Shown: one piece after another, positions 11,028 to 62,573 of the stretch
How the letters are laid out: each line of letters starts with the position of its first letter
How positions within the stretch are numbered: the first letter of the stretch is position 1
DNA from: Spirochaetia bacterium
GTDB taxonomy: Bacteria; Spirochaetota; Spirochaetia; SZUA-6; Bin103
Reading direction: 5' to 3'
NCBI GenBank assembly: GCA_965198005.1
Contig: CBDAOI010000003.1
Coordinates: 672,001 to 736,000 of the forward strand
DNA: 64,000 nucleotides
Notes under the pieces: generated by a model
The model's database searches: none
The model's input: the letters and a program-made list of their open reading frames with translations, nothing else
What the model was told of the DNA's origin: nothing
Program-made: the position numbers and the translations under genes

Positions 11028-12839
11028 CTAATGACCCATTGCCTCCTTCAGCTCACTATCAATCCAGAGGCGGGCGAAAAGTGGAATACTGTCCCCGGTT
11101 GGGTCATTTTCACCGTCATAACCTATGATCCACGGCTGGGACACATTAAAACTTGGAACTCTCGGACCCGCGAACCACCAGTGATTCTCTATGAGGTACA
11201 TATTTGCCTCGTTGACCAGCCTCTTCTGCTCCTCAATGGTGGTAGCGGCTTCGGCGGCTTCATACATGGCGTCATAAACCGTGTCGTTGACGTTGGGGGG
11301 GTTCCATCCTGAGGCCGAGTAAGCTCCCGTTAACGGCAGAAGCGCGGGCTGATAGTCGGCGTTTGAAACTTGAGTAACCAGACCTTGCTGCTTATGCTCT
11401 CGCACAAGAGCCGTATAAGCAGTTCCGTCAACTACCTGCACCTCTACAGCAATGCCAATGGCACGCAAGTATTCGATGACTATCTGGTAATAGTCTAAAT
11501 CGAATGGCCCGTAGTGGTCATAGACGGTGCGGAATCTTACGCCGTCCGCGCCGCGAGGTAATCCAGCCTCATCAAGCAACGCTTCTGCCCCTTCCGGGTC
11601 ATAGGTATAGTATCTCTTGAGCTCTTCGGGCCAGTCTTCAAATGGGGTGAAATACCCGATAAGACCTGTCCCTATCTGCCCTGCAGGCGTCGTATCTGCC
11701 CAACCGTGGAAGTAGGTATCGTTAATTGTCTCAAGGTCGACTGCCATCTGTATTGCGCGGCGCACCGTGACGTCGTTCCAGGGTGGCATCTGCACGTTAA
11801 AAGTCATAGCCGTATCCGCACGAAATGAAAATGGCCACAGGTTCAGTTCGGGGTTGGTCCGCTGGAGGCTTACCGCCGTATCGATGCTCCTTATTATTGT
11901 GCCGCCCGCCCGACCGATGTAATCAGCCTTACCTGTACGCATTAACGCCAGATTTGTCGCTTGTTCCGTCGATATCAGGGACCTTATCTCGTCAACATAG
12001 GGCAGGCGGTTCTCGGGGTACTTTTCGTCGTAGCCCCAGTAGTCAGGATTCTTGGTATAGGTGAGGGAACTGCCCTCGACATGGTCAGTCAGCTCAAAGG
12101 GCCCGGTGCCGACCACGTTCCTCCAATCCGTAACGTCGCCGTATTGCTCGACTACCTCGCGGGCCATTATCCATCCGAGACTTCCAAGGAGGATTTCCTT
12201 CAGCGCTTCGAGGCGTATCGACTTCAGCTTAAAGACAACCGTCCATTTGTCGGTGGCCGTTATCGATTCAACATTCATCTTTTCGAGGGGATGAGCGGCA
12301 GCGGCAACATCAAAGCTAGGTTCGGCTTCACTGAAGTCGCCCAGGCCCAATATACGCTGAAAGCTATATTCTATATCCTCGGCAGTTAGCTCCCGACCGT
12401 TCACGGGTGGCTTGTTGTGCCAGTGAACGTCCTGGCGGATGTTGAAGGTATAGGTGAGGCCGTCCGGGGAAATATCCCAGCTTTCAGCCAGCCTCCCTGT
12501 TACGGCAGACAGAGGGACGAAACCTGTCAAAAAGTCAAATACGTCCCTATCTAATGCCCAGTTCCAGTAGCCTAGCTTCTCATTAACACCCGAGATAGTG
12601 TTTGTCGCGGTGTACGAGAAATAGGGGTCAATATTCTTACCGATGTTAGACTGGACTTGGGTGAATGTCCCGCCGTACTCCGGCGCGGTCACCACCTTGC
12701 CGTTGGTGGGGTCGGTCACATACTTCTTGTCGGCGGCGGCTGCCGAGCCCTCCTCTGCGCCACCCGCCCAGAGGCCGGTTGCGGTCAACACGAGGACCAA
12801 CGCAACCGCGAAGGTCATTCTAATTCTTACAATATTCAT
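11028..12839 (-). CDS. ABC substrate-binding protein, family 5 (cassette 1)
   Basis: Signal peptide ...TGLWAGGAEE, LAESWDIS, VGTGPF, KNPDYWG, VRRAIQMAVD. Confidence 0.95.
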   Translation of the reverse strand: MNIVRIRMTFAVALVLVLTATGLWAGGAEEGSAAAADKKYVTDPTNGKVVTAPEYGGTFTQVQSNIGKNIDPYFSYTATNTISGVNEKLGYWNWALDRDVFDFLTGFVPLSAVTGRLAESWDISPDGLTYTFNIRQDVHWHNKPPVNGRELTAEDIEYSFQRILGLGDFSEAEPSFDVAAAAHPLEKMNVESITATDKWTVVFKLKSIRLEALKEILLGSLGWIMAREVVEQYGDVTDWRNVVGTGPFELTDHVEGSSLTYTKNPDYWGYDEKYPENRLPYVDEIRSLISTEQATNLALMRTGKADYIGRAGGTIIRSIDTAVSLQRTNPELNLWPFSFRADTAMTFNVQMPPWNDVTVRRAIQMAVDLETINDTYFHGWADTTPAGQIGTGLIGYFTPFEDWPEELKRYYTYDPEGAEALLDEAGLPRGADGVRFRTVYDHYGPFDLDYYQIVIEYLRAIGIAVEVQVVDGTAYTALVREHKQQGLVTQVSNADYQPALLPLTGAYSASGWNPPNVNDTVYDAMYEAAEAATTIEEQKRLVNEANMYLIENHWWFAGPRVPSFNVSQPWIIGYDGENDPTGDSIPLFARLWIDSELKEAMGH

Positions 12840-12877
12840 ACGTATCTCCGTATGTAGATGTTTCGAGAGTATTGCGT

Positions 12878-13400
12878 AGCGGATTGCCGCTCCCTGGCTA
12901 CTCTAACGCCCGCAACCGCGGGCGCGCCCGCAAACGCGGACGGCCAGTCAGAGTCAAATTCCTGAAAGCGCGCGGCGTGTGACTCAGCGGGTTCACCCCG
13001 GGCTCACGCCGCGCGCGCGTGCGGTTCTTTCAGTATCATCTTCACCTCCTTCTCGGGGCACAGGGTGCCGTGCCAGATGGCTGACGTAAGATGGGATCCG
13101 CGTGCGCGCCCCATCATGCAAACGCCCACCGCTCGGCGGAGGTCGGGACCTGCGTCACAACGCCACGCGGGGCGGTGGTCGGCCGAGCAACGCATGTGGT
13201 TGACCGGCGACGTGGGCGGTCGGTTCTGTGACGGTGAGTTGGGGGGCGGGGATCCAGGACCGCTGCGGTCGCAGCCGGCCGCTACCCCGGTGCTGAAGGC
13301 GACGGCGTGCGCGGGGGCACGTACGGGGCGATCAGCCGGAGCGGTTAGTTGTTTCTCGGTTCGAAAAAGTGTGTGTGTGTGTGTGGGGGGGGGGGGGTAG
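12878..13400 (-). promoter_or_regulatory. Leader A, copy 1: ~520-nt conserved 5' leader of SBP gene
   Basis: Colinear, highly similar copy at 60195-60740, also upstream of an SBP gene. Confidence 0.75.
13004..13039 (-). CDS. Putative leader peptide MILKEPHARAA
   Basis: SD AAGGAGGTGA; 3 copies in window; stop codon inside 12-bp GC stem. Confidence 0.55.
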   Translation of the reverse strand: MILKEPHARAA

Positions 13401-13461
13401 GAAGCATCGGTTGCGTCACCACCAACCGGTCACTGCGCTGACTGTCGTCGTGGCGCATCAT
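13345..13461 (-). CDS. Putative polyproline uORF MMRHDDSQRSDRLVVTQPMLPTPPPPHTHTHFFEPRNN
   Basis: Same frame and C-terminus as 60696-60803 across a different-length C tract. Confidence 0.5.
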   Translation of the reverse strand: MMRHDDSQRSDRLVVTQPMLPTPPPPHTHTHFFEPRNN

Positions 13462-14128
13462 CCTCATCCGTTCGATCCCCGAACTCCCTATCGTTTCACG
13501 GTCGCCCAATGATATCAAGCGCGGACTCCGGCGCTTCCGGCCGCCCGCCAGCGTCGCCGCCACCGGACACCGCCAACCCGTCACTGCGCTGCCTGTCGTC
13601 ATGGCGCTTCATCACCGATCCGTCGAACCCCAGGCGAGGCACGTTAGCATAGGGGCCGCGCGCCGTCAACGACTCGTCGGGGTCACCGAAGGTCACCGCC
13701 AACCGGTCACCGCGCTGACTGTCATCATGGCGTTTCATCACCGATCCGTTGAATCGTGAGCTCGAAGTATGGGGCCCAGCGCAAGAAACGTCAACAGCGA
13801 TTCTGGCCTCGTGCACCTTACCTCGCCCGGCTGTGCAAACGGTTGATGTTGCGCGCGTCACCAACCGGTCACTGCGCTCACTGTCGCCATCGCGCCTCAT
13901 GACCATCCGTTCGATCCCAAAACTCCCTATCGTCACAGGCTCGCCTGACCATGTCAAGCGCGGACTCCGGCCGTTCCGGCCGCCCGTCAGCGTCGCCGCC
14001 ACCGGAGGTTGTGACGTTGCGGGCACCGCCAACCGTCCACTGCGCTGACTGTCATCATGGCGCTTCATCATCGATCCGTCGAACCGCAGCCGAGGCAAGC
14101 TTGCTACTGGGCTGGGTCATGTCGTCAC
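13418..14128 (-). repeat. Tandem array of 5 promoter-containing units (periods 151/126/162/168 bp)
   Basis: Conserved ~60-bp core (ccaaccggtcactgcgctgactgtcatcatggcgcttcat); -35/-10 pairs TTGATA-17-AACGAT, TTGACG-17-TAACGT, TTGACG-17-CATACT, TTGACA-17-GACGAT, plus one degenerate. Confidence 0.85.
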
Positions 14129-14479
14129 CCATACACATGCGAGCATAGACCAGCGCGAGAGGCGTGGCAAGCGCTTTGGGCAGCGTGGGCAGCGTGCACC
14201 GCTTCTCGGTGAACGGCTGGTAGAGGGGCAGAGTGTCATAAGCTCAAGCCCTCCGAATGTGAAATGCGACCATACCCACCTGTTGGCCCACCGAGTGAAT
14301 GCACGGCCCAATACTATAACTTATTGTAGGTGATGTAGTTAGCACCGTCAAGCAGCCCGGTGCGATGGGGTGCATTCCGTCTGTGTGGTAGCGCACGGGA
14401 CCGACAAGAGCGGTGTCACCGAGATCGAGCATGGCGGCCAGCGCGGCCAGGGAACCGCCAACTCCGCCGGCGATGGGCG

Positions 14480-14509
14480 TTGACACCGAAGAAGCCGCGC
14501 GGATATGTT
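14480..14509 (+). promoter_or_regulatory. sigma70-like promoter of rpn gene
   Basis: TTGACA-18-TATGTT, 15 nt before ATG 14525. Confidence 0.5.
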
Positions 14510-14524
14510 CGCCATCGGGTCGTC

Positions 14525-15559
14525 ATGGCTGACGAGCGGGCAGCACAGCAACCGGACGGTGGCGCATCGGAGACGGCGGTCAGCCAGCCGCACGACAAGT
14601 ACTTCCAGCGCGTGTTCTCGAACGCGAAGGACGCGGCCAGTCTGCTGCGCACCTGTGTGCCGGGCGCGCTCGCCGACACCTTGAAGTGGTCGACGCTGAG
14701 CCTGCTGCGGGGTCGCTTCGTGGATGACGACTGGCGGCGCAACGAGACCGATATGCTGTATTCGGTGGAGCGGGAGGGTACGGAGCCGGCGGTGCTGGTG
14801 TACGTACTGCTGGAGCATCAGTCGACGCCGGACCCGTGGCTGCGGCTGCGGTTGCTCGGCTACTGCGTACAGGTGTGGCAGGAGTGGCGGCGGAAGCACC
14901 GGAACGAGGAACGATTGCCGCTGCTGGTGCCGCTGGTATTCTACCAGGGAGCGCGACGGTGGGAGTATACGCGGGAATTTGCGGACTTGGTAACGGAGGC
15001 GGCGCCGGAGTGGCGGTGGGTGCCGAGGTTCGAGCATCTGCTGATCGACCAGACGGAGAAGAGCGCGGAATCGGTGACGGGCGCGGTAGCGGCGCGGCTG
15101 TTGCAGATCGCGATGATGGCGGCGTTTCGGGAAGCGCCGGGGAAGTTGCTGGAACGGGCGACGCGGTTGATCGGGGAATTGTACCGCGCAGCGGGGTTTG
15201 AGGAAGTGACGCAGCACGTGGAGTACGTGCTGGCGACGCAGCCGGAAGCACAGCGGAAGCTGTTTGCGGAGGCGTTGCAGAGGAACGTGCCGGGCCGCGG
15301 AGGAGAGGTGATGAATTACGTGGAAGAAATGATCGAGCGAGGGCGCCGGGAAGGGCGTCAGGAAGGGCGCCGGGAAGGCCGCCAGGAAGGGCGCCGGGAA
15401 GGCCGCCGGGAAGGGCAGGTGCGAGCCATCGAGGGGTTCGTGGCACGAGATATATCGTGGTCCACCATCGAAGAGGCCACGGGCATCGACGAGGCCACAT
15501 ACCGGCGCCTCAGGCAGCGAATCGACGCGGAAGACAACGGGGCAGATTCCACCGTCTGA
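14525..15559 (+). CDS. Rpn/YhgA-like PD-(D/E)XK nuclease (putative transposase)
   Basis: QPHDKYFQ, ETDMLYSV, LLEHQSTPD, LVPLVFYQG, C-terminal (EGRR/EGRQ)n repeats. Confidence 0.9.
   Translation: MADERAAQQPDGGASETAVSQPHDKYFQRVFSNAKDAASLLRTCVPGALADTLKWSTLSLLRGRFVDDDWRRNETDMLYSVEREGTEPAVLVYVLLEHQSTPDPWLRLRLLGYCVQVWQEWRRKHRNEERLPLLVPLVFYQGARRWEYTREFADLVTEAAPEWRWVPRFEHLLIDQTEKSAESVTGAVAARLLQIAMMAAFREAPGKLLERATRLIGELYRAAGFEEVTQHVEYVLATQPEAQRKLFAEALQRNVPGRGGEVMNYVEEMIERGRREGRQEGRREGRQEGRREGRREGQVRAIEGFVARDISWSTIEEATGIDEATYRRLRQRIDAEDNGADSTV
15311..15559 (+). CDS. Putative intragenic RpnS antitoxin (in-frame internal start)
   Basis: GGAGGAGAGG immediately before in-frame GTG-ATG at 15308/15311. Confidence 0.6.
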   Translation: MNYVEEMIERGRREGRQEGRREGRQEGRREGRREGQVRAIEGFVARDISWSTIEEATGIDEATYRRLRQRIDAEDNGADSTV

Positions 15560-16374: not shown

Positions 16375-17050
16375 CCAGCCAGGTTCGTCTCTTTGGCTCA
16401 CTTGCTGGTGGTGGTATCCCTGTGGCGTCACTCATACTCGTGATTTTCCCCCTTTATCTATAACGGACCCTGGGGTCCAAATAAGGATAGATCAGGTCGA
16501 TCATTAGATTGGCCCCCATAACCGCGGCGCCGAAAACCAGGTTTACTCCGGAGACCACCGGGTAGTCTCTGTCATCGAGGGCAGTCACCATGAGACGACG
16601 TCATCCGCATTGTGGCTGCGGACATGGCTGTCCCCAGAATCAGGCTGGGAATGATATCAAGAGCCCGATGATGATTGCTATGAAACCAAGCTCGATGGTT
16701 ACCGGCAATCCATCTATTATCCTCTCCTCTATCGTAAAAGCGCCCATCAGTGATTCGCCGAGGGTGCCCTGGAGGAGACCTCTAAAGTGGGACTCACCGG
16801 TAACCCAGTCAGGGGTCGGCAACACTCCTATCCAGCGTCCATACTGCACGTGGACAGGCACGTCCAATCCCAGCATATGCTCAAGAGCTTCACGGTCAAC
16901 CCCCCCCACGCTTGGGAGTATAGCCGTTGAGGTAGAAATCACCGTTAAACCCTATGACCCACGGCTGGGTTCCGCCAAATTGGGGAACTTTAGGACCCCA
17001 TATGTACCAATGCTGCTCTATGATGTACATATCTGCCTCTGCAACCAGCA
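16375..17050 (-). pseudogene. Collapsed SBP-oppB-oppC cassette: SBP C-terminal piece, oppB pieces with deletions, oppC stub
   Basis: EADMYIIEQHWYIWGP; VDREALEHMLGLDVP; RDYPVV...LDPRVRYR; MSDATGIPPPASEPKRRT. Confidence 0.75.
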
Positions 17051-17753
17051 TGCCGGCGCTGAATTGCGGGTCGCCGAGCTTGCCCATGAGGTTCCTCTCG
17101 AACATCGCACGCGTTACGGGGCTGCCGTCGCGGTCCATGTACTCCCGGAAGGCGGACACGATCCGCCGGGGATCGCACCGCTCATCGGCGATTCCGGTTG
17201 CCACGTCGAACAGATCCCGTGCCTTCTTGCGCTGGTACAGTGCTCTGAGCTTCGTCGCCATCAGCTCGTCGAGTTCAAACGTCTTGATATGGGCTACTCC
17301 GGAATACCACCGTGATTGCACCGAGAACGACCTCTTGGCAAAGCCGAAAACCGTAAAACGCTCGCGGGTATTGATCTCGATCTTGAGACGCAGACGCATT
17401 GGGGCGACGTCCTCCGACATGAAGCGGTACCGGAACGTCACGCGACCTCGCGACTGCTTCCACTGCGCTTCCCCAAGCCAGGGATCGAGGACGCTCCGCA
17501 TGGCATCCATAACCGGCCCGGCAGCTTCGGGCACGACCTGAATCAGATCGATTTCCTCAGAGTAGCGTGCGGGCGGCGTAAGGTAGAGCTTGTAGAGTGC
17601 TGTCCCGCCCCGAAAGGCCAGTGCCTCGGCCAGAACAGAGTTGGAGAACATTTCGACCAGGGCACGGCTGATGATCAGGTCCTGCTCCACCTGGAAATCC
17701 TCGATCCACGGTGCCCGCGTCCGCCATTCGGTGATGTAATCTCGAGGGATCAC
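17051..17753 (-). pseudogene. AbiEii-type nucleotidyltransferase toxin, 3'-truncated
   Basis: MIPRDYITEW, VEQDLIISRAL, AFRGGTAL, RYSEEIDL, KLRALYQRKKARDLFD; GTGA overlap with antitoxin stop. Confidence 0.85.
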
Positions 17754-18236
17754 GCGTCTGTCTGGATTTCTGCGTTGACGTACAACCGCCAATCGCTGGA
17801 TCGCTGCGCACCGATGGCATCTGCGGCTGGCACGAGCTTCGTGTAGTTTCGCACCGTTCTTCGCACGTGCTCCTTGAGGAGCGCGGTCTTGTCTCCCGCT
17901 CCGACATGCTCGAGAAGGTAGCCCAAACGCTGAGCCCAACGGATCGACGCCGATTTCGATGCCTCGACGAGGCGGTGCGGGTCCAGAGCCTCACCGAGCT
18001 CGGCAAGAAGGCTGGCCACCTGATCCACCCCGCCGGAGCGATGCATGTACCCGACAAGGTCCACCGCTGTCCCTTCGACCGTCGAAACCCGAACGGTTCC
18101 CCGCGGATTGTTGAAACCTTGGACCGGCACTGCACGCATGTTCCGGCGCGCAACGAAGGTGACCTTGACGGAACCACACGCGATCGCCGGCCGGTTCCGC
18201 TCCAGGACGACCTGGAACTCTTGCGGACGATGATGG
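17750..18236 (-). pseudogene. AbiEi-type antitoxin, 5'-truncated
   Basis: HHRPQEFQVV, VSTVEGTAVDLV, AQRLGYLLE, WRLYVN; coupled to abiEii. Confidence 0.8.
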
Positions 18237-18464
18237 TCCGCCGAAAGGTGGCTTGGCATACACCACCCACTCTTTGCTGCGCAGTTGATCAGCTAGCGAT
18301 CCGAAGCGACCCGGATCGATCCGCAAGGTCAGAGAGGGCGCCGTGGAATTGGAGACGATCGGCAACGAAGCTTTTCGTGAGTGCCGCGAGCAGCCCGGCA
18401 CGGAACCATTAGCCGTGGCCAGGTTACGGATGACGTCGGCCACCTCGAAGGGCGGCTGGTGCAC
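18237..18464 (-). pseudogene. IS91-family transposase remnant with large internal deletion
   Basis: FEVADVIR N-terminus joined to KEWVVYAKPPFGGP. Confidence 0.7.
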
Positions 18465-60740: not shown

Positions 60741-60803
60741 ATGATGCAACTGTCGCGTCACAGCGAACCGATCACTGCGCTGCCTGTCATCGTGACGCTT
60801 CAT
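60696..60803 (-). CDS. Putative polyproline uORF MKRHDDRQRSDRFAVTRQLHHTPPPPPHFFKPRNN
   Basis: Manual translation; same termini as 13345-13461. Confidence 0.5.
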   Translation of the reverse strand: MKRHDDRQRSDRFAVTRQLHHTPPPPPHFFKPRNN

Positions 60804-61245
60804 GACCATCCGTCAAACCCCAGGTGAGGCACGCTAGCATAGGCGCGGCGCGCCGTCAACGACTCGTGGGGGTCACCGGGGTGAGCGAAGGTCACCGGCA
60901 ACCCGTCACTGCGCTGACTGTCATCATGGCGCTTCATCGGCATCCGTCGACCCCAAGCCAAGCATGATAGCGTGGGCGCGGCGCACTGTCAACGACTCGG
61001 AGCTCACCAAACGTGACCGCCAACCGGCCACTGCGCTGACTGTCATCATGGCGTTTCATCACCGTTCCATCGGACCCCAAGCGAAGCAAGCTTCGCTCTG
61101 GACGCGGCCACCCTGTCAACGACTCGGACGTCACCGACCGTGACCGCCAACCGGTCACTGCGCTGACTGTCGTCATGGCGCGTCATCATCGATCGGTCGA
61201 ACCCCAAGCGAGGCAAGCATGCTATGGACGCGACCACCCTGTCAA
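60759..61245 (-). repeat. Tandem array of 4 promoter-containing units (periods 134/122/127 bp)
   Basis: Same core as 13418-14128; TTGACG-17-TAGCGT, TTGACA-17-TATCAT, TTGACA-19-GAAGCT, TTGACA-18-CATGCT. Confidence 0.85.
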
Positions 61246-61614
61246 CAGCGCCGACCCGTGCAGCCCCGCCGCCTCGAACCGGGCGACCATGGTGTCGGCC
61301 TCCGCCAGGCTGGCAGCCATCGGCTTCTCGCACACGACATGCGCGCCATGATCGGCGGCCAACAGCGACAGTGCTGCGTGGCTCGACGCATGCGTCGCGA
61401 TGGCGACGATGTCGAGATCCTCCGTGCGGAACATCTGCGCCGCGTCGGCGTAGCTCGTGACGCCCGGCCAATCCTGCTCGGCCCGTGCGCGCGCCTCCGC
61501 TACCTCATCGGCGACCGCGACCAGGCGGATGCGCTCCAGCCCAGCCATCACCTCCGCGTGGCGGGCCCCGAGGTTGCCGTAGCCGACCCCGGCGCCGCGA
61601 TACCTGCTTTCCAT
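61246..61614 (-). pseudogene. Gfo/Idh/MocA oxidoreductase, N-terminal half
   Basis: GVGYGNLG, LVAVAD, HVVCEKPMA. Confidence 0.85.
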
Positions 61615-61643
61615 TCGGCGAGCGGTAGCTGGGCGAAGCCGAG

Positions 61644-62573
61644 CTACGCCTGCTTCTTCACCGGCTCGCGGCCGAGGCGCCCCCCGCCACCCCGCAGCCG
61701 CGGGTCGAGCAGGTCTCTGACCGCGTCGCCGAACATGTTCAGGCAGTACACCAGCACGGTCAGGAAGATGCCGGGCCAGAACGCCAGCCACGGCGCCTGC
61801 TCCATGTACTCGCGCCCTTCGCGGCTCAGCATCCCACCCCAGCTGGGAACCTCCAGTGGCAGACCGAAGCCGAGAAAGCTCAGCGAGGCCTCACTGATGA
61901 TTACCGCACCGATGTTGATACTGAAGACGATGATCACCGGCGCGACGATGTTGGGCACGACGTGGCGAATCAACGTCATTCCCCTCGATGACCCAATCGC
62001 CTCGGCCGCCTGAAAGTAGACATTCTCCTTGATGGCGATGACGGCGCTGCGGACCACCCTCGAGCCGCCGATGCCGCCGGTTACGCCGAGGACCACGATG
62101 GTCTGCACCAGCCCCTGCCCGACGATGGACATGATGGTCAACAGGATCAGCAGTCCGGGTATCGATACCCAGGCATCGACGAATCGTTGGGTCGCCAGGT
62201 CCACCTTACCGCCAACGAAGCCGGAGGCACCGCCGATCACCAGGGCGACCACGACGTTGAGGGCGGTCGCGGCCAGGCCAACGGTCAGCGAAACCCGCGC
62301 GCCGTAAATCAGGCGGGTCAGCAGGTCGCGTCCGATATGATCGGTGCCGAGCAGAAAGCGCGCCGAGGGCCCGCTGAGCCGATCGGCCAGGCTCATCTCC
62401 AGCATTCCGTAGGGAGCCAGCGCGTCGGCGAAGATGGCGGTCAGCGCGAACAGCACGATGATGATCCCACTGGCGGTTCCCAGGGGTTTCTCCTTCCACA
62501 GCCGAGCGAAGAAGTAGGCGGCGCCGGTGCGGGTCTTCGGCTCGCTCACCGCGGTGGTCTGTCTGTCACTCAT
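61644..62573 (-). CDS. OppC permease (cassette 7)
   Basis: Family motifs. Confidence 0.95.
   Translation of the reverse strand: MSDRQTTAVSEPKTRTGAAYFFARLWKEKPLGTASGIIIVLFALTAIFADALAPYGMLEMSLADRLSGPSARFLLGTDHIGRDLLTRLIYGARVSLTVGLAATALNVVVALVIGGASGFVGGKVDLATQRFVDAWVSIPGLLILLTIMSIVGQGLVQTIVVLGVTGGIGGSRVVRSAVIAIKENVYFQAAEAIGSSRGMTLIRHVVPNIVAPVIIVFSINIGAVIISEASLSFLGFGLPLEVPSWGGMLSREGREYMEQAPWLAFWPGIFLTVLVYCLNMFGDAVRDLLDPRLRGGGGRLGREPVKKQA

Follow-up and report, generated by a model that had tools for sequence, protein, structure and literature searches.

The tandem array lying upstream of a substrate-binding protein (SBP) operon in a Spirochaetia bacterium is a real stack of promoter-plus-mini-gene modules, placed before a nutrient-uptake operon and most likely piled up by a jumping gene that inserts right ahead of promoters and can have a module of this kind in its end. 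It is located in a stretch of 64,000 nucleotides, which was analysed as a whole and is called the window below (assembly GCA_965198005.1, contig CBDAOI010000003.1, positions 672,001 to 736,000). Judging from its sequence, the repeated unit is a "head" consisting of a housekeeping sigma70 promoter, a ribosome start and a short ORF. According to our preferred reading, to which we assign a probability of roughly 0.58, nested homing of an insertion sequence (IS) deposits heads, recombination reshuffles them, and the upstream promoters add read-through.

Organization of the Array and Its Leader

A preliminary description of this DNA had claimed five units and four promoters, and both counts stand. 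Five cores of ~85 nt each were found at 13413, 13564, 13690, 13852 and 14020, and the four promoters lie exactly where they had been placed, on the minus strand, with a 17-nt spacer in 4/4 and a TG in 3/4. Their boxes are TTGATA/AACGAT (13518–13490), TTGACG/TAACGT (13669–13641), TTGACG/CATACT (13794–13766) and TTGACA/GACGAT (13957–13929). The claim that every unit carries its own promoter was wrong, as the description's own text already implied: unit 1 has lost its -35 box. The features, in window coordinates and in the direction of the array, are as follows.

14323..14351, minus strand: outward promoter TTGACG-17-TACAAT of a relic IS right end (scan score 10/12)
14244..14273, minus strand: nine-codon ORF of the IS right end; a matching block precedes intact inverted repeats
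14197..14214, minus strand: decayed right terminal inverted repeat of the promoter-homing IS (15/18 letters, compared by eye)
14177..14196, no strand: 9-bp tandem duplication (TRF period 9)
14142..14170, minus strand: promoter P0, TTGCCA-17-TATGCT (scan score 9/12)
14055..14132, minus strand: short diverged head ORF of 25 codons behind P0, fused into unit 1
14020..14104, minus strand: unit 1, type-A core, -35 lost; ORF from 14071, open through units 2–4 to 13496
13965..13982, minus strand: 9-bp duplication in the IS target register, ending 8 bp short of the unit 2 -35 box
13852..13957, minus strand: unit 2, type-F promoter 13957–13929 and head, ATG at 13906
13690..13794, minus strand: unit 3, type-M promoter 13794–13766 and head, start at 13741
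13564..13669, minus strand: unit 4, type-B promoter 13669–13641 and head, start at 13615
13345..13518, minus strand: unit 5, F-related promoter 13518–13490 (-35 TTGATA) and leader ORF
13467–13345, minus strand: leader ORF of unit 5, 40 codons, crossing the C tract
13369..13397, minus strand: C13 tract (13385–13397) followed by a CA repeat, within the last leader ORF
13347..13360, minus strand: conserved block following the C tract; has ACCGAGAA in common with the IS inverted repeat, at a similar register
13040..13346, minus strand: C-rich body of the shared leader (C 0.40, G 0.28), with a frame open for 126 codons
13004..13039, minus strand: 11-codon mini-ORF with a strong Shine-Dalgarno sequence
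12968..13016, no strand: 12-bp perfect inverted repeat after the mini-ORF
11028..12839, minus strand: SBP_bac_5 substrate-binding protein gene (Pfam E 6e-67)
60758..61249, minus strand: second array of the unit family, four units (AABB), same leader

All four promoters orient toward the SBP operon, in which the SBP_bac_5 gene is followed by two permease-like ORFs, the first matching BPD_transp_1 (Pfam). A scan with the E. coli promoter consensus found five sites vs. 0.6 expected; it recovered only 1/4 of the array promoters and added two minus-strand promoters missed by the preliminary description, namely P0 (14170–14142) and the outward promoter of the relic IS end (14351–14323). TRF reported only the second array (60894–61246) and left the window array at 13413–14104 undetected because its units are too divergent (core identity to the reference copy 64–86%; unit spacing 151, 126, 162 and 168 nt). 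The 5′ edge of the second array cuts off a Gfo/Idh/MocA oxidoreductase gene (61222–61791).

The window array begins at the decayed IS end (14197–14214), 17 + 9 bp before P0. The 9-bp duplication at 14177–14196, which is probably the footprint of a target duplication, increases the distance between this IS end and the following -35 box from 17 to 26 bp; in a sister copy on C4, without the duplication, the IS end stands at 17 bp. Further upstream, the block 14234–14367 recurs with ~80% identity at many loci, and its promoter type is also found inside IS right ends. The head ORF behind P0 (14055–14132) resembles, by eye, the short heads of other loci.

The Unit Family in the Genome and Its Relatives

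A unit profile search of the genome containing the window (G000; other G and L numbers denote further genomes and loci compared) returned 166 hits, a few of them halves of one unit, at 70 loci, of which 37 hold a single unit and 33 hold arrays of 2–7 units. These loci lie upstream of same-strand SBP5 genes, within 1 kb at 51/70 and within 1.5 kb at 53/70, vs. 2.3 loci expected within 1.5 kb under random placement; most are 240–900 bp from the SBP gene. The 4.9-Mb genome possesses 172 SBP_bac_5-like loci (profile search, score >150), and a C run of at least 7 is located within 1.1 kb upstream of 84 of the 143 full-length ones.

DNA matches to the family were obtained in 7/10 same-genus genomes and in 0/30 other genomes searched. 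Spirochaetia MAGs account for 14 of the 15 named matches, and the RNA libraries matching the family best are sponge metagenomes. A near-identical three-unit array (L060) was also found on a 4.1-kb contig labelled Chloroflexota, which is probably mis-binned.

As the idea of an expandable array had implied, unit number varies between relatives: it differs at 11/12 distinct near-orthologous SBP loci, whose SBP genes are 94–98% identical between genomes, with the caveat that the relatives' windows are short and a count of none may hide an intervening IS or another head type. From their sequences, the units of the window array are not copies of one another. The closest relative of an array unit is a unit at another locus in 111/117 cases, and the window array is a mosaic of unit types, ?FMBe. 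Other arrays have the type orders DGABB, DAAAACB and GBAE, which imply exchange within the core.

Promoter Form and Possible Selection on the Stack

Promoters of the host were surveyed upstream of non-SBP genes and away from the repeat element (n = 182 TTGAC cases). The motif xAxxxT follows TTGAC after 17 or 18 nt in 39 + 36 of the 182, vs. 5–16 at each of the other spacings, and T is present at -12 in 64% of the promoters of this form. TTGAC-17/18-xAxxxT, being enriched upstream of non-SBP genes, is therefore the ordinary promoter form of the lineage. The four array promoters, which are more than chance would give, match it, with -35 and -10 boxes at 17 ± 1 nt, in support of their preliminary assignment to the sigma70 type. 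Among the unit promoters (n = 111 distinct) the pattern occurs with a spacing of 17 nt in 39 cases, of 18 nt in 60 and of 19 nt in 28. In relatives, lone SBP promoters have the same look as the host form, and six sigma70-region-2 proteins are encoded in the genome.

The preliminary description had read the divergent spacers between conserved boxes as a sign of selection on promoter function. As an argument for selection on the stack this is not supported, because the units descend from different promoter types that are found singly elsewhere. Box changes were counted within promoter types, to which 195/246 units could be assigned. Last units show 1 box change vs. 42 flanking changes (p = 0.0008), one artefact among their alleles having been replaced by the true TTGATA of window unit 5. 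Upstream units show 12 vs. 62 changes in the raw data and 7 vs. 62 (p = 0.02) after 5/12 alleles were dropped as artefacts (truncated unit, shifted -10). Relative to the flanking rate, boxes mutate at ~0.45 in upstream units and at ~0.1 in last units. Proximal promoters and ORFs are constrained and upstream ones less so, with a difference in the boxes that is not significant (p = 0.12). T at -12 or a TG is present in 50/61 last, 32/79 middle and 9/61 first units.

Selection for promoter dosage is possible. In its full form, this explanation holds that the stack, whatever its origin, is a selected amplifier in which each promoter adds SBP-operon transcription and unit number works as a rheostat. 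The differing unit numbers at near-orthologous loci, the retention of TTGAC in 61/65 scorable middle units and the reduced change in upstream boxes would all fit. However, type A, which is the most frequent among internal units, has the weakest -10 box and lacks TG, 20/61 first units have no promoter, and one unit suffices at 37/70 loci. The head frame is open across the next promoter at 99/128 junctions (30/51 classes vs. 21 expected, p = 0.005, with classes that are not independent), which would keep long transcripts covered by ribosomes; yet the open junction classes share ancestry, and 9-bp footprints preserve the frame unaided. RNA-library contigs that bridge internal promoters, described below, are also in line with an amplifier. 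On balance we consider this explanation unlikely.

Several observations on the promoters count against our preferred reading. The upstream boxes are still somewhat protected, most scorable middle units (61/65) retain TTGAC, and the last promoter of the window array is not its strongest, the highest score (ad hoc, with penalties chosen by the analyst) belonging to unit 4 rather than to unit 5. Since the last -35 box (TTGATA) is imperfect at this locus, units 2 and 4 may matter here.

Coding Content and Transcription of the Units

The conserved core of the unit is a frame open from an ATG. Over 97 sites, pN/pS equals 0.56 in the head frame vs. 0.89–1.03 in the other five frames. In the 70 terminal cores, relatives included, the weighted ratio of non-synonymous to synonymous change is 0.38, without stops (column-shuffle p = 0.0045); in the 77 upstream cores, relatives included, it is 0.65 (p = 0.21). 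The ORFs entering the 128 junctions read through in 45 cases, stop on the next ATG in 46, stop early in 30 and end elsewhere in 7.

The preliminary description had also offered an array of individually transcribed small RNAs or peptides; we considered such products as acting in trans. The peptide idea was half right, as a short ORF head is present in every unit. In favour of a trans-acting product are the promoter and start codon that each unit possesses and the excess of synonymous change in terminal ORFs, but the ends of the ORFs vary freely and the units are associated in cis with SBP genes at 51/70 loci. For small RNAs, the Rfam search matched no family and gave chance hits only, folding z-scores of units range from -0.5 to +1.1, and the consensus fold of 13 units (-3.0 kcal/mol, covariation -0.08) contains no conserved structure. 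No minus-strand terminator-like site was found in 12500–15500 by a scan for intrinsic terminators. We regard the trans-acting reading as very improbable. The preliminary interpretation is thus partly supported, keeping its promoters, their orientation and the unit-number differences, and losing its small RNAs and its spacer argument.

RNA-library contigs 13603–13707 and 13714–13933 (two runs, one study) bridge internal promoters. They give a weak hint of read-through between units, because the libraries may contain DNA and paralogues match. Low RNA depth at 14342–14475 comes from other samples and strains and is no sign of silence.

Several other identities were considered and rejected. RNAs of the CsrB/RsmZ type act as protein sponges in hosts that encode CsrA; such a sponge was suggested by GGA-loop variants, but CsrA was not found in the 6 genomes searched (0/1 + 0/5, controls positive), which also speaks against small RNAs. 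A structured small RNA or riboswitch array lacks an Rfam match, a covarying fold and a terminator after the units. In CRISPR and TIGR guide arrays, constant repeats surround unique spacers, whereas the variable parts here recur at other loci as promoter types. A repeat polyprotein, proposed from the 200-codon ORF at 13496–14098, has no Pfam hit and no frame bias, and only 22/66 junction clusters keep the frame (p = 0.55), unlike in a tandem-repeat protein gene. No tRNA or tmRNA identity was found, and a viral origin received 0 pattern hits. A series of transcription-factor operators, suggested by conservation with a ~9-bp period, is more simply explained by the codon-frame signal.

A Promoter-Homing IS as the Proposed Source of Heads

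The insertion site of a DDE-type IS in this lineage lies 17 bp ahead of -35 boxes. Counting distinct flanks outside G000, TTG is found 17 bp from the IS end in 23/30 (16/18 in relatives, 7/12 in metagenomes); in G000, it is found at 17–18 bp in 15/42. The transposase (L101) matches DDE_Tnp_1 with 27.4 bits, above the cut-off, and weakly DDE_Tnp_1_assoc (Pfam) and IS701 (NCBIfam), while Pfam and NCBIfam gave no Mutator-family match. The same homing register is seen in copies of the family (L101 251–2397; L104–L144) from relatives as well as from unrelated metagenome contigs.

Some variants of this IS carry an outward-facing head just inside the right inverted repeat. In G000, 5/25 transposase 3′ ends possess an outward promoter and a family head, the ORF of which runs through the inverted repeat. 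Two of these head-bearing IS are complete and flanked by matching 8-bp sequences; one of the two splits an array. In another genome, a transposase of 69% identity (L115) is accompanied by the same head/inverted-repeat junction in the same register. The IS-end head scores weakly against the unit profile (E = 0.001). Right ends in G000 measure 350–675 bp, some with two inverted repeats; in 26/30 foreign copies the right end measures 206–292 bp and is headless. A head therefore does not belong to the IS in general, and host leaders may be where it was captured. The IS right ends of G000 carry four or more mutually unrelated promoter-plus-mini-ORF modules.

Intermediates of nesting are also present. 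Six junctions of the form head, inverted repeat, 17/18 bp and TTG were found, four of which then continue into a second head. At one locus of a relative (L057), three tandem heads with inverted repeats between them are followed by a C tract, the standard leader and an SBP gene; no transposase was found within 6 kb. Duplications of 8–10 bp ending 8 bp before the -35 box occur in 29/187 distinct units, vs. at most 3 at any within-unit position, as expected of target duplications left by IS visits. At 14/70 unit loci, among them the window locus, an IS right end is located no more than 130 bp upstream. A breakpoint census peaks at 17–19 bp (124/383 pairs), and we do not use it as evidence because its pairs lack independence and the IS itself takes part in many of them.

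We propose the following course of events. An IS with a head in its right end would land 17 bp before the promoter of another head, producing the order head, inverted repeat, 17 bp, head, of which natural copies exist. If the IS body and the inner inverted repeats were then lost, bare head stacks would remain; we infer this removal, as the junctions inside G000 arrays hold no inverted repeats. Recombination in the core may then swap, add and drop heads among the ~70 loci, as the mosaic type orders suggest. With no terminator found between units, all promoters would feed nested transcripts into one long leader and the SBP operon. Genome-wide, most of the work would fall to the proximal head, whose promoter is the best, whose ORF is constrained and which has the C tract. 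The heads upstream of it would be weaker and partly in decay, supplying additional read-through, starts and ribosome entry sites, and deletions could bring them forward.

Alternatively, heads could be leader modules of the host that form arrays by unequal recombination or slippage, with IS visits and the captured head being secondary. The mosaic type orders and the headless foreign IS copies suit this account, as do arrays in G003, with 1 transposase match, and in G006, with none, and G007, which has single heads, one with a C tract, and no transposase match. In the same genome, G007, an 11-codon mini-ORF stands directly behind a lone promoter. Host leaders multiplying by recombination leave unexplained, however, the first tandem of unlike heads, the L057 triple separated by inverted repeats, the similar register from head tail to ACCGAGAA in IS ends and in leaders, and the same head/inverted-repeat junction in two diverged IS lineages. 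We judge this alternative quite unlikely, and retain nested homing.

The C Tract and the Leader

As assembled, the ORF of the last head has 40 codons; another frame past the C13 tract runs for 126 codons over the C-rich body (13040–13346) and ends at the stop of the mini-ORF. A simple repeat is thus located inside a leader ORF and sets its length. The leader body continues the frame of the terminal head in no more than 10/22 cases (~7 expected). No intrinsic terminator was found in the leader by the scan of 12500–15500, the hairpin at 12968–13016 being without a U tail, and Rho is encoded in the genome. A translation-coupled, tract-dependent switch is plausible, in which the C tract would determine whether translation covers the C-rich leader, with control of the Rho type; the low share of terminal heads that match the body frame weakens the case for it. 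The mini-ORF at 13004–13039 (also at L036), with its strong Shine-Dalgarno sequence and hairpin before the SBP gene, is conserved with synonymous changes.

Behind the last head, the C tract and the block after it (13347–13360), which includes ACCGAGAA, occupy about the same register as in the IS end. That this block is a fossil IS end is suggestive only, because it concerns one 8-mer and a single event inherited by many copies. Combining these elements, we speculate that the right end of a promoter-homing IS was domesticated to control a family of ~170 genes for surface binding proteins. The leader head would derive from the outward promoter and ORF of this IS end and the frameshifting C tract from its C-rich subterminal repeat, and nested homing with recombination would maintain a library of exchangeable promoter cassettes before each operon. 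As a whole, this scenario is tentative and rather unlikely. If true, a symbiont population could retune each uptake system by gaining, losing and advancing heads.

Comparison with Known Systems

The closest parallel in insertion is offered by TnGBS/ISLre2 and ISKra4-group elements (p-MULT3/4), which have a Mutator-like transposase and insert in one orientation 15–17 bp upstream of -35 boxes (PMC3942029). The present IS shares this register, at 17 bp in 23/30 flanks, and differs in its DDE_Tnp_1 transposase without a Mutator-family hit; the passages on p-MULT3/4 make no mention of outward promoter-ORF heads or of stacks built by nesting (PMC3942029). Mycobacterial MIRUs are short interspersed repeats with an internal ORF and possible coupling through a -4 overlap (PMC12548453). 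ORF coupling is similar here: of the 128 junction ORFs, 46 terminate on the following ATG, while 45 read through. Start codons are the insertion sites of MIRUs, and the passages on MIRUs describe no promoters (PMC12548453); the units described here bear promoters and lie hundreds of bases upstream of the gene, away from its start codon.

The pil1 operon of Streptococcus gallolyticus, which encodes surface proteins, contains a simple repeat in a leader-peptide ORF that alters the extent of translation (PMC3894217). The layout of a repeat in a leader upstream of an operon is the same; pil1 has GCAGA repeats and a stem-loop terminator, with no promoter stack described in the passages on it (PMC3894217), whereas a C tract is found here and no intrinsic terminator was detected. 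Pneumococcal BOX repeats (PMC3049150) and Neisseria Correia elements (PMC2649163) are genus-restricted, probably parasitic and can form ORFs or supply promoters. The present units are likewise genus-restricted, probably parasitic repeats bearing promoters or ORFs. As described in those sources, BOX and Correia elements are structured or bounded by inverted repeats and scattered genome-wide; the present units are unstructured, oriented and concentrated before one gene family. In E. coli K1, the serial promoters PR1-1/2/3 contribute unequally to one operon (PMC13656800), and several promoters in series before one operon are common to both cases. Homology among the PR1 promoters as repeated modules, a mobile origin and a number that varies among strains are not part of their description in the passages on PR1 (PMC13656800). 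The window stack belongs to none of these systems, and a literature search by titles and abstract openings found no report of such arrays or of stacks produced by nested homing.

Promoter-homing transposons and promoter-donating IS ends are already known separately. Their combination predicts self-nesting and stacked promoters, and in this lineage intermediates and end products occur side by side, offering a concrete route by which mobile DNA may build control regions with multiple promoters and leader peptides. The 0–7 heads before near-identical genes form a natural series, suited to learning if promoters in a stack add up, interfere with one another or make no difference. The analysis also advises caution, in that diverged spacers between conserved repeat boxes do not alone show selection on a repeat.

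Neighbouring Genes

Divergently from the window array, a gene at 14528–15559 encodes an Rpn/YhgA protein with a 12-bp C-terminal repeat, and the block 14148–14559 upstream of it has a 97.8% copy on C4. An AbiEii/AbiEi type IV toxin-antitoxin pair is located at 16896–18259 of the window. Beside four arrays on C4 of G000 (near 358536, 380075, 409980 and 418540) lie antisense ORFs, which we take, by eye, to be group II intron reverse transcriptases.
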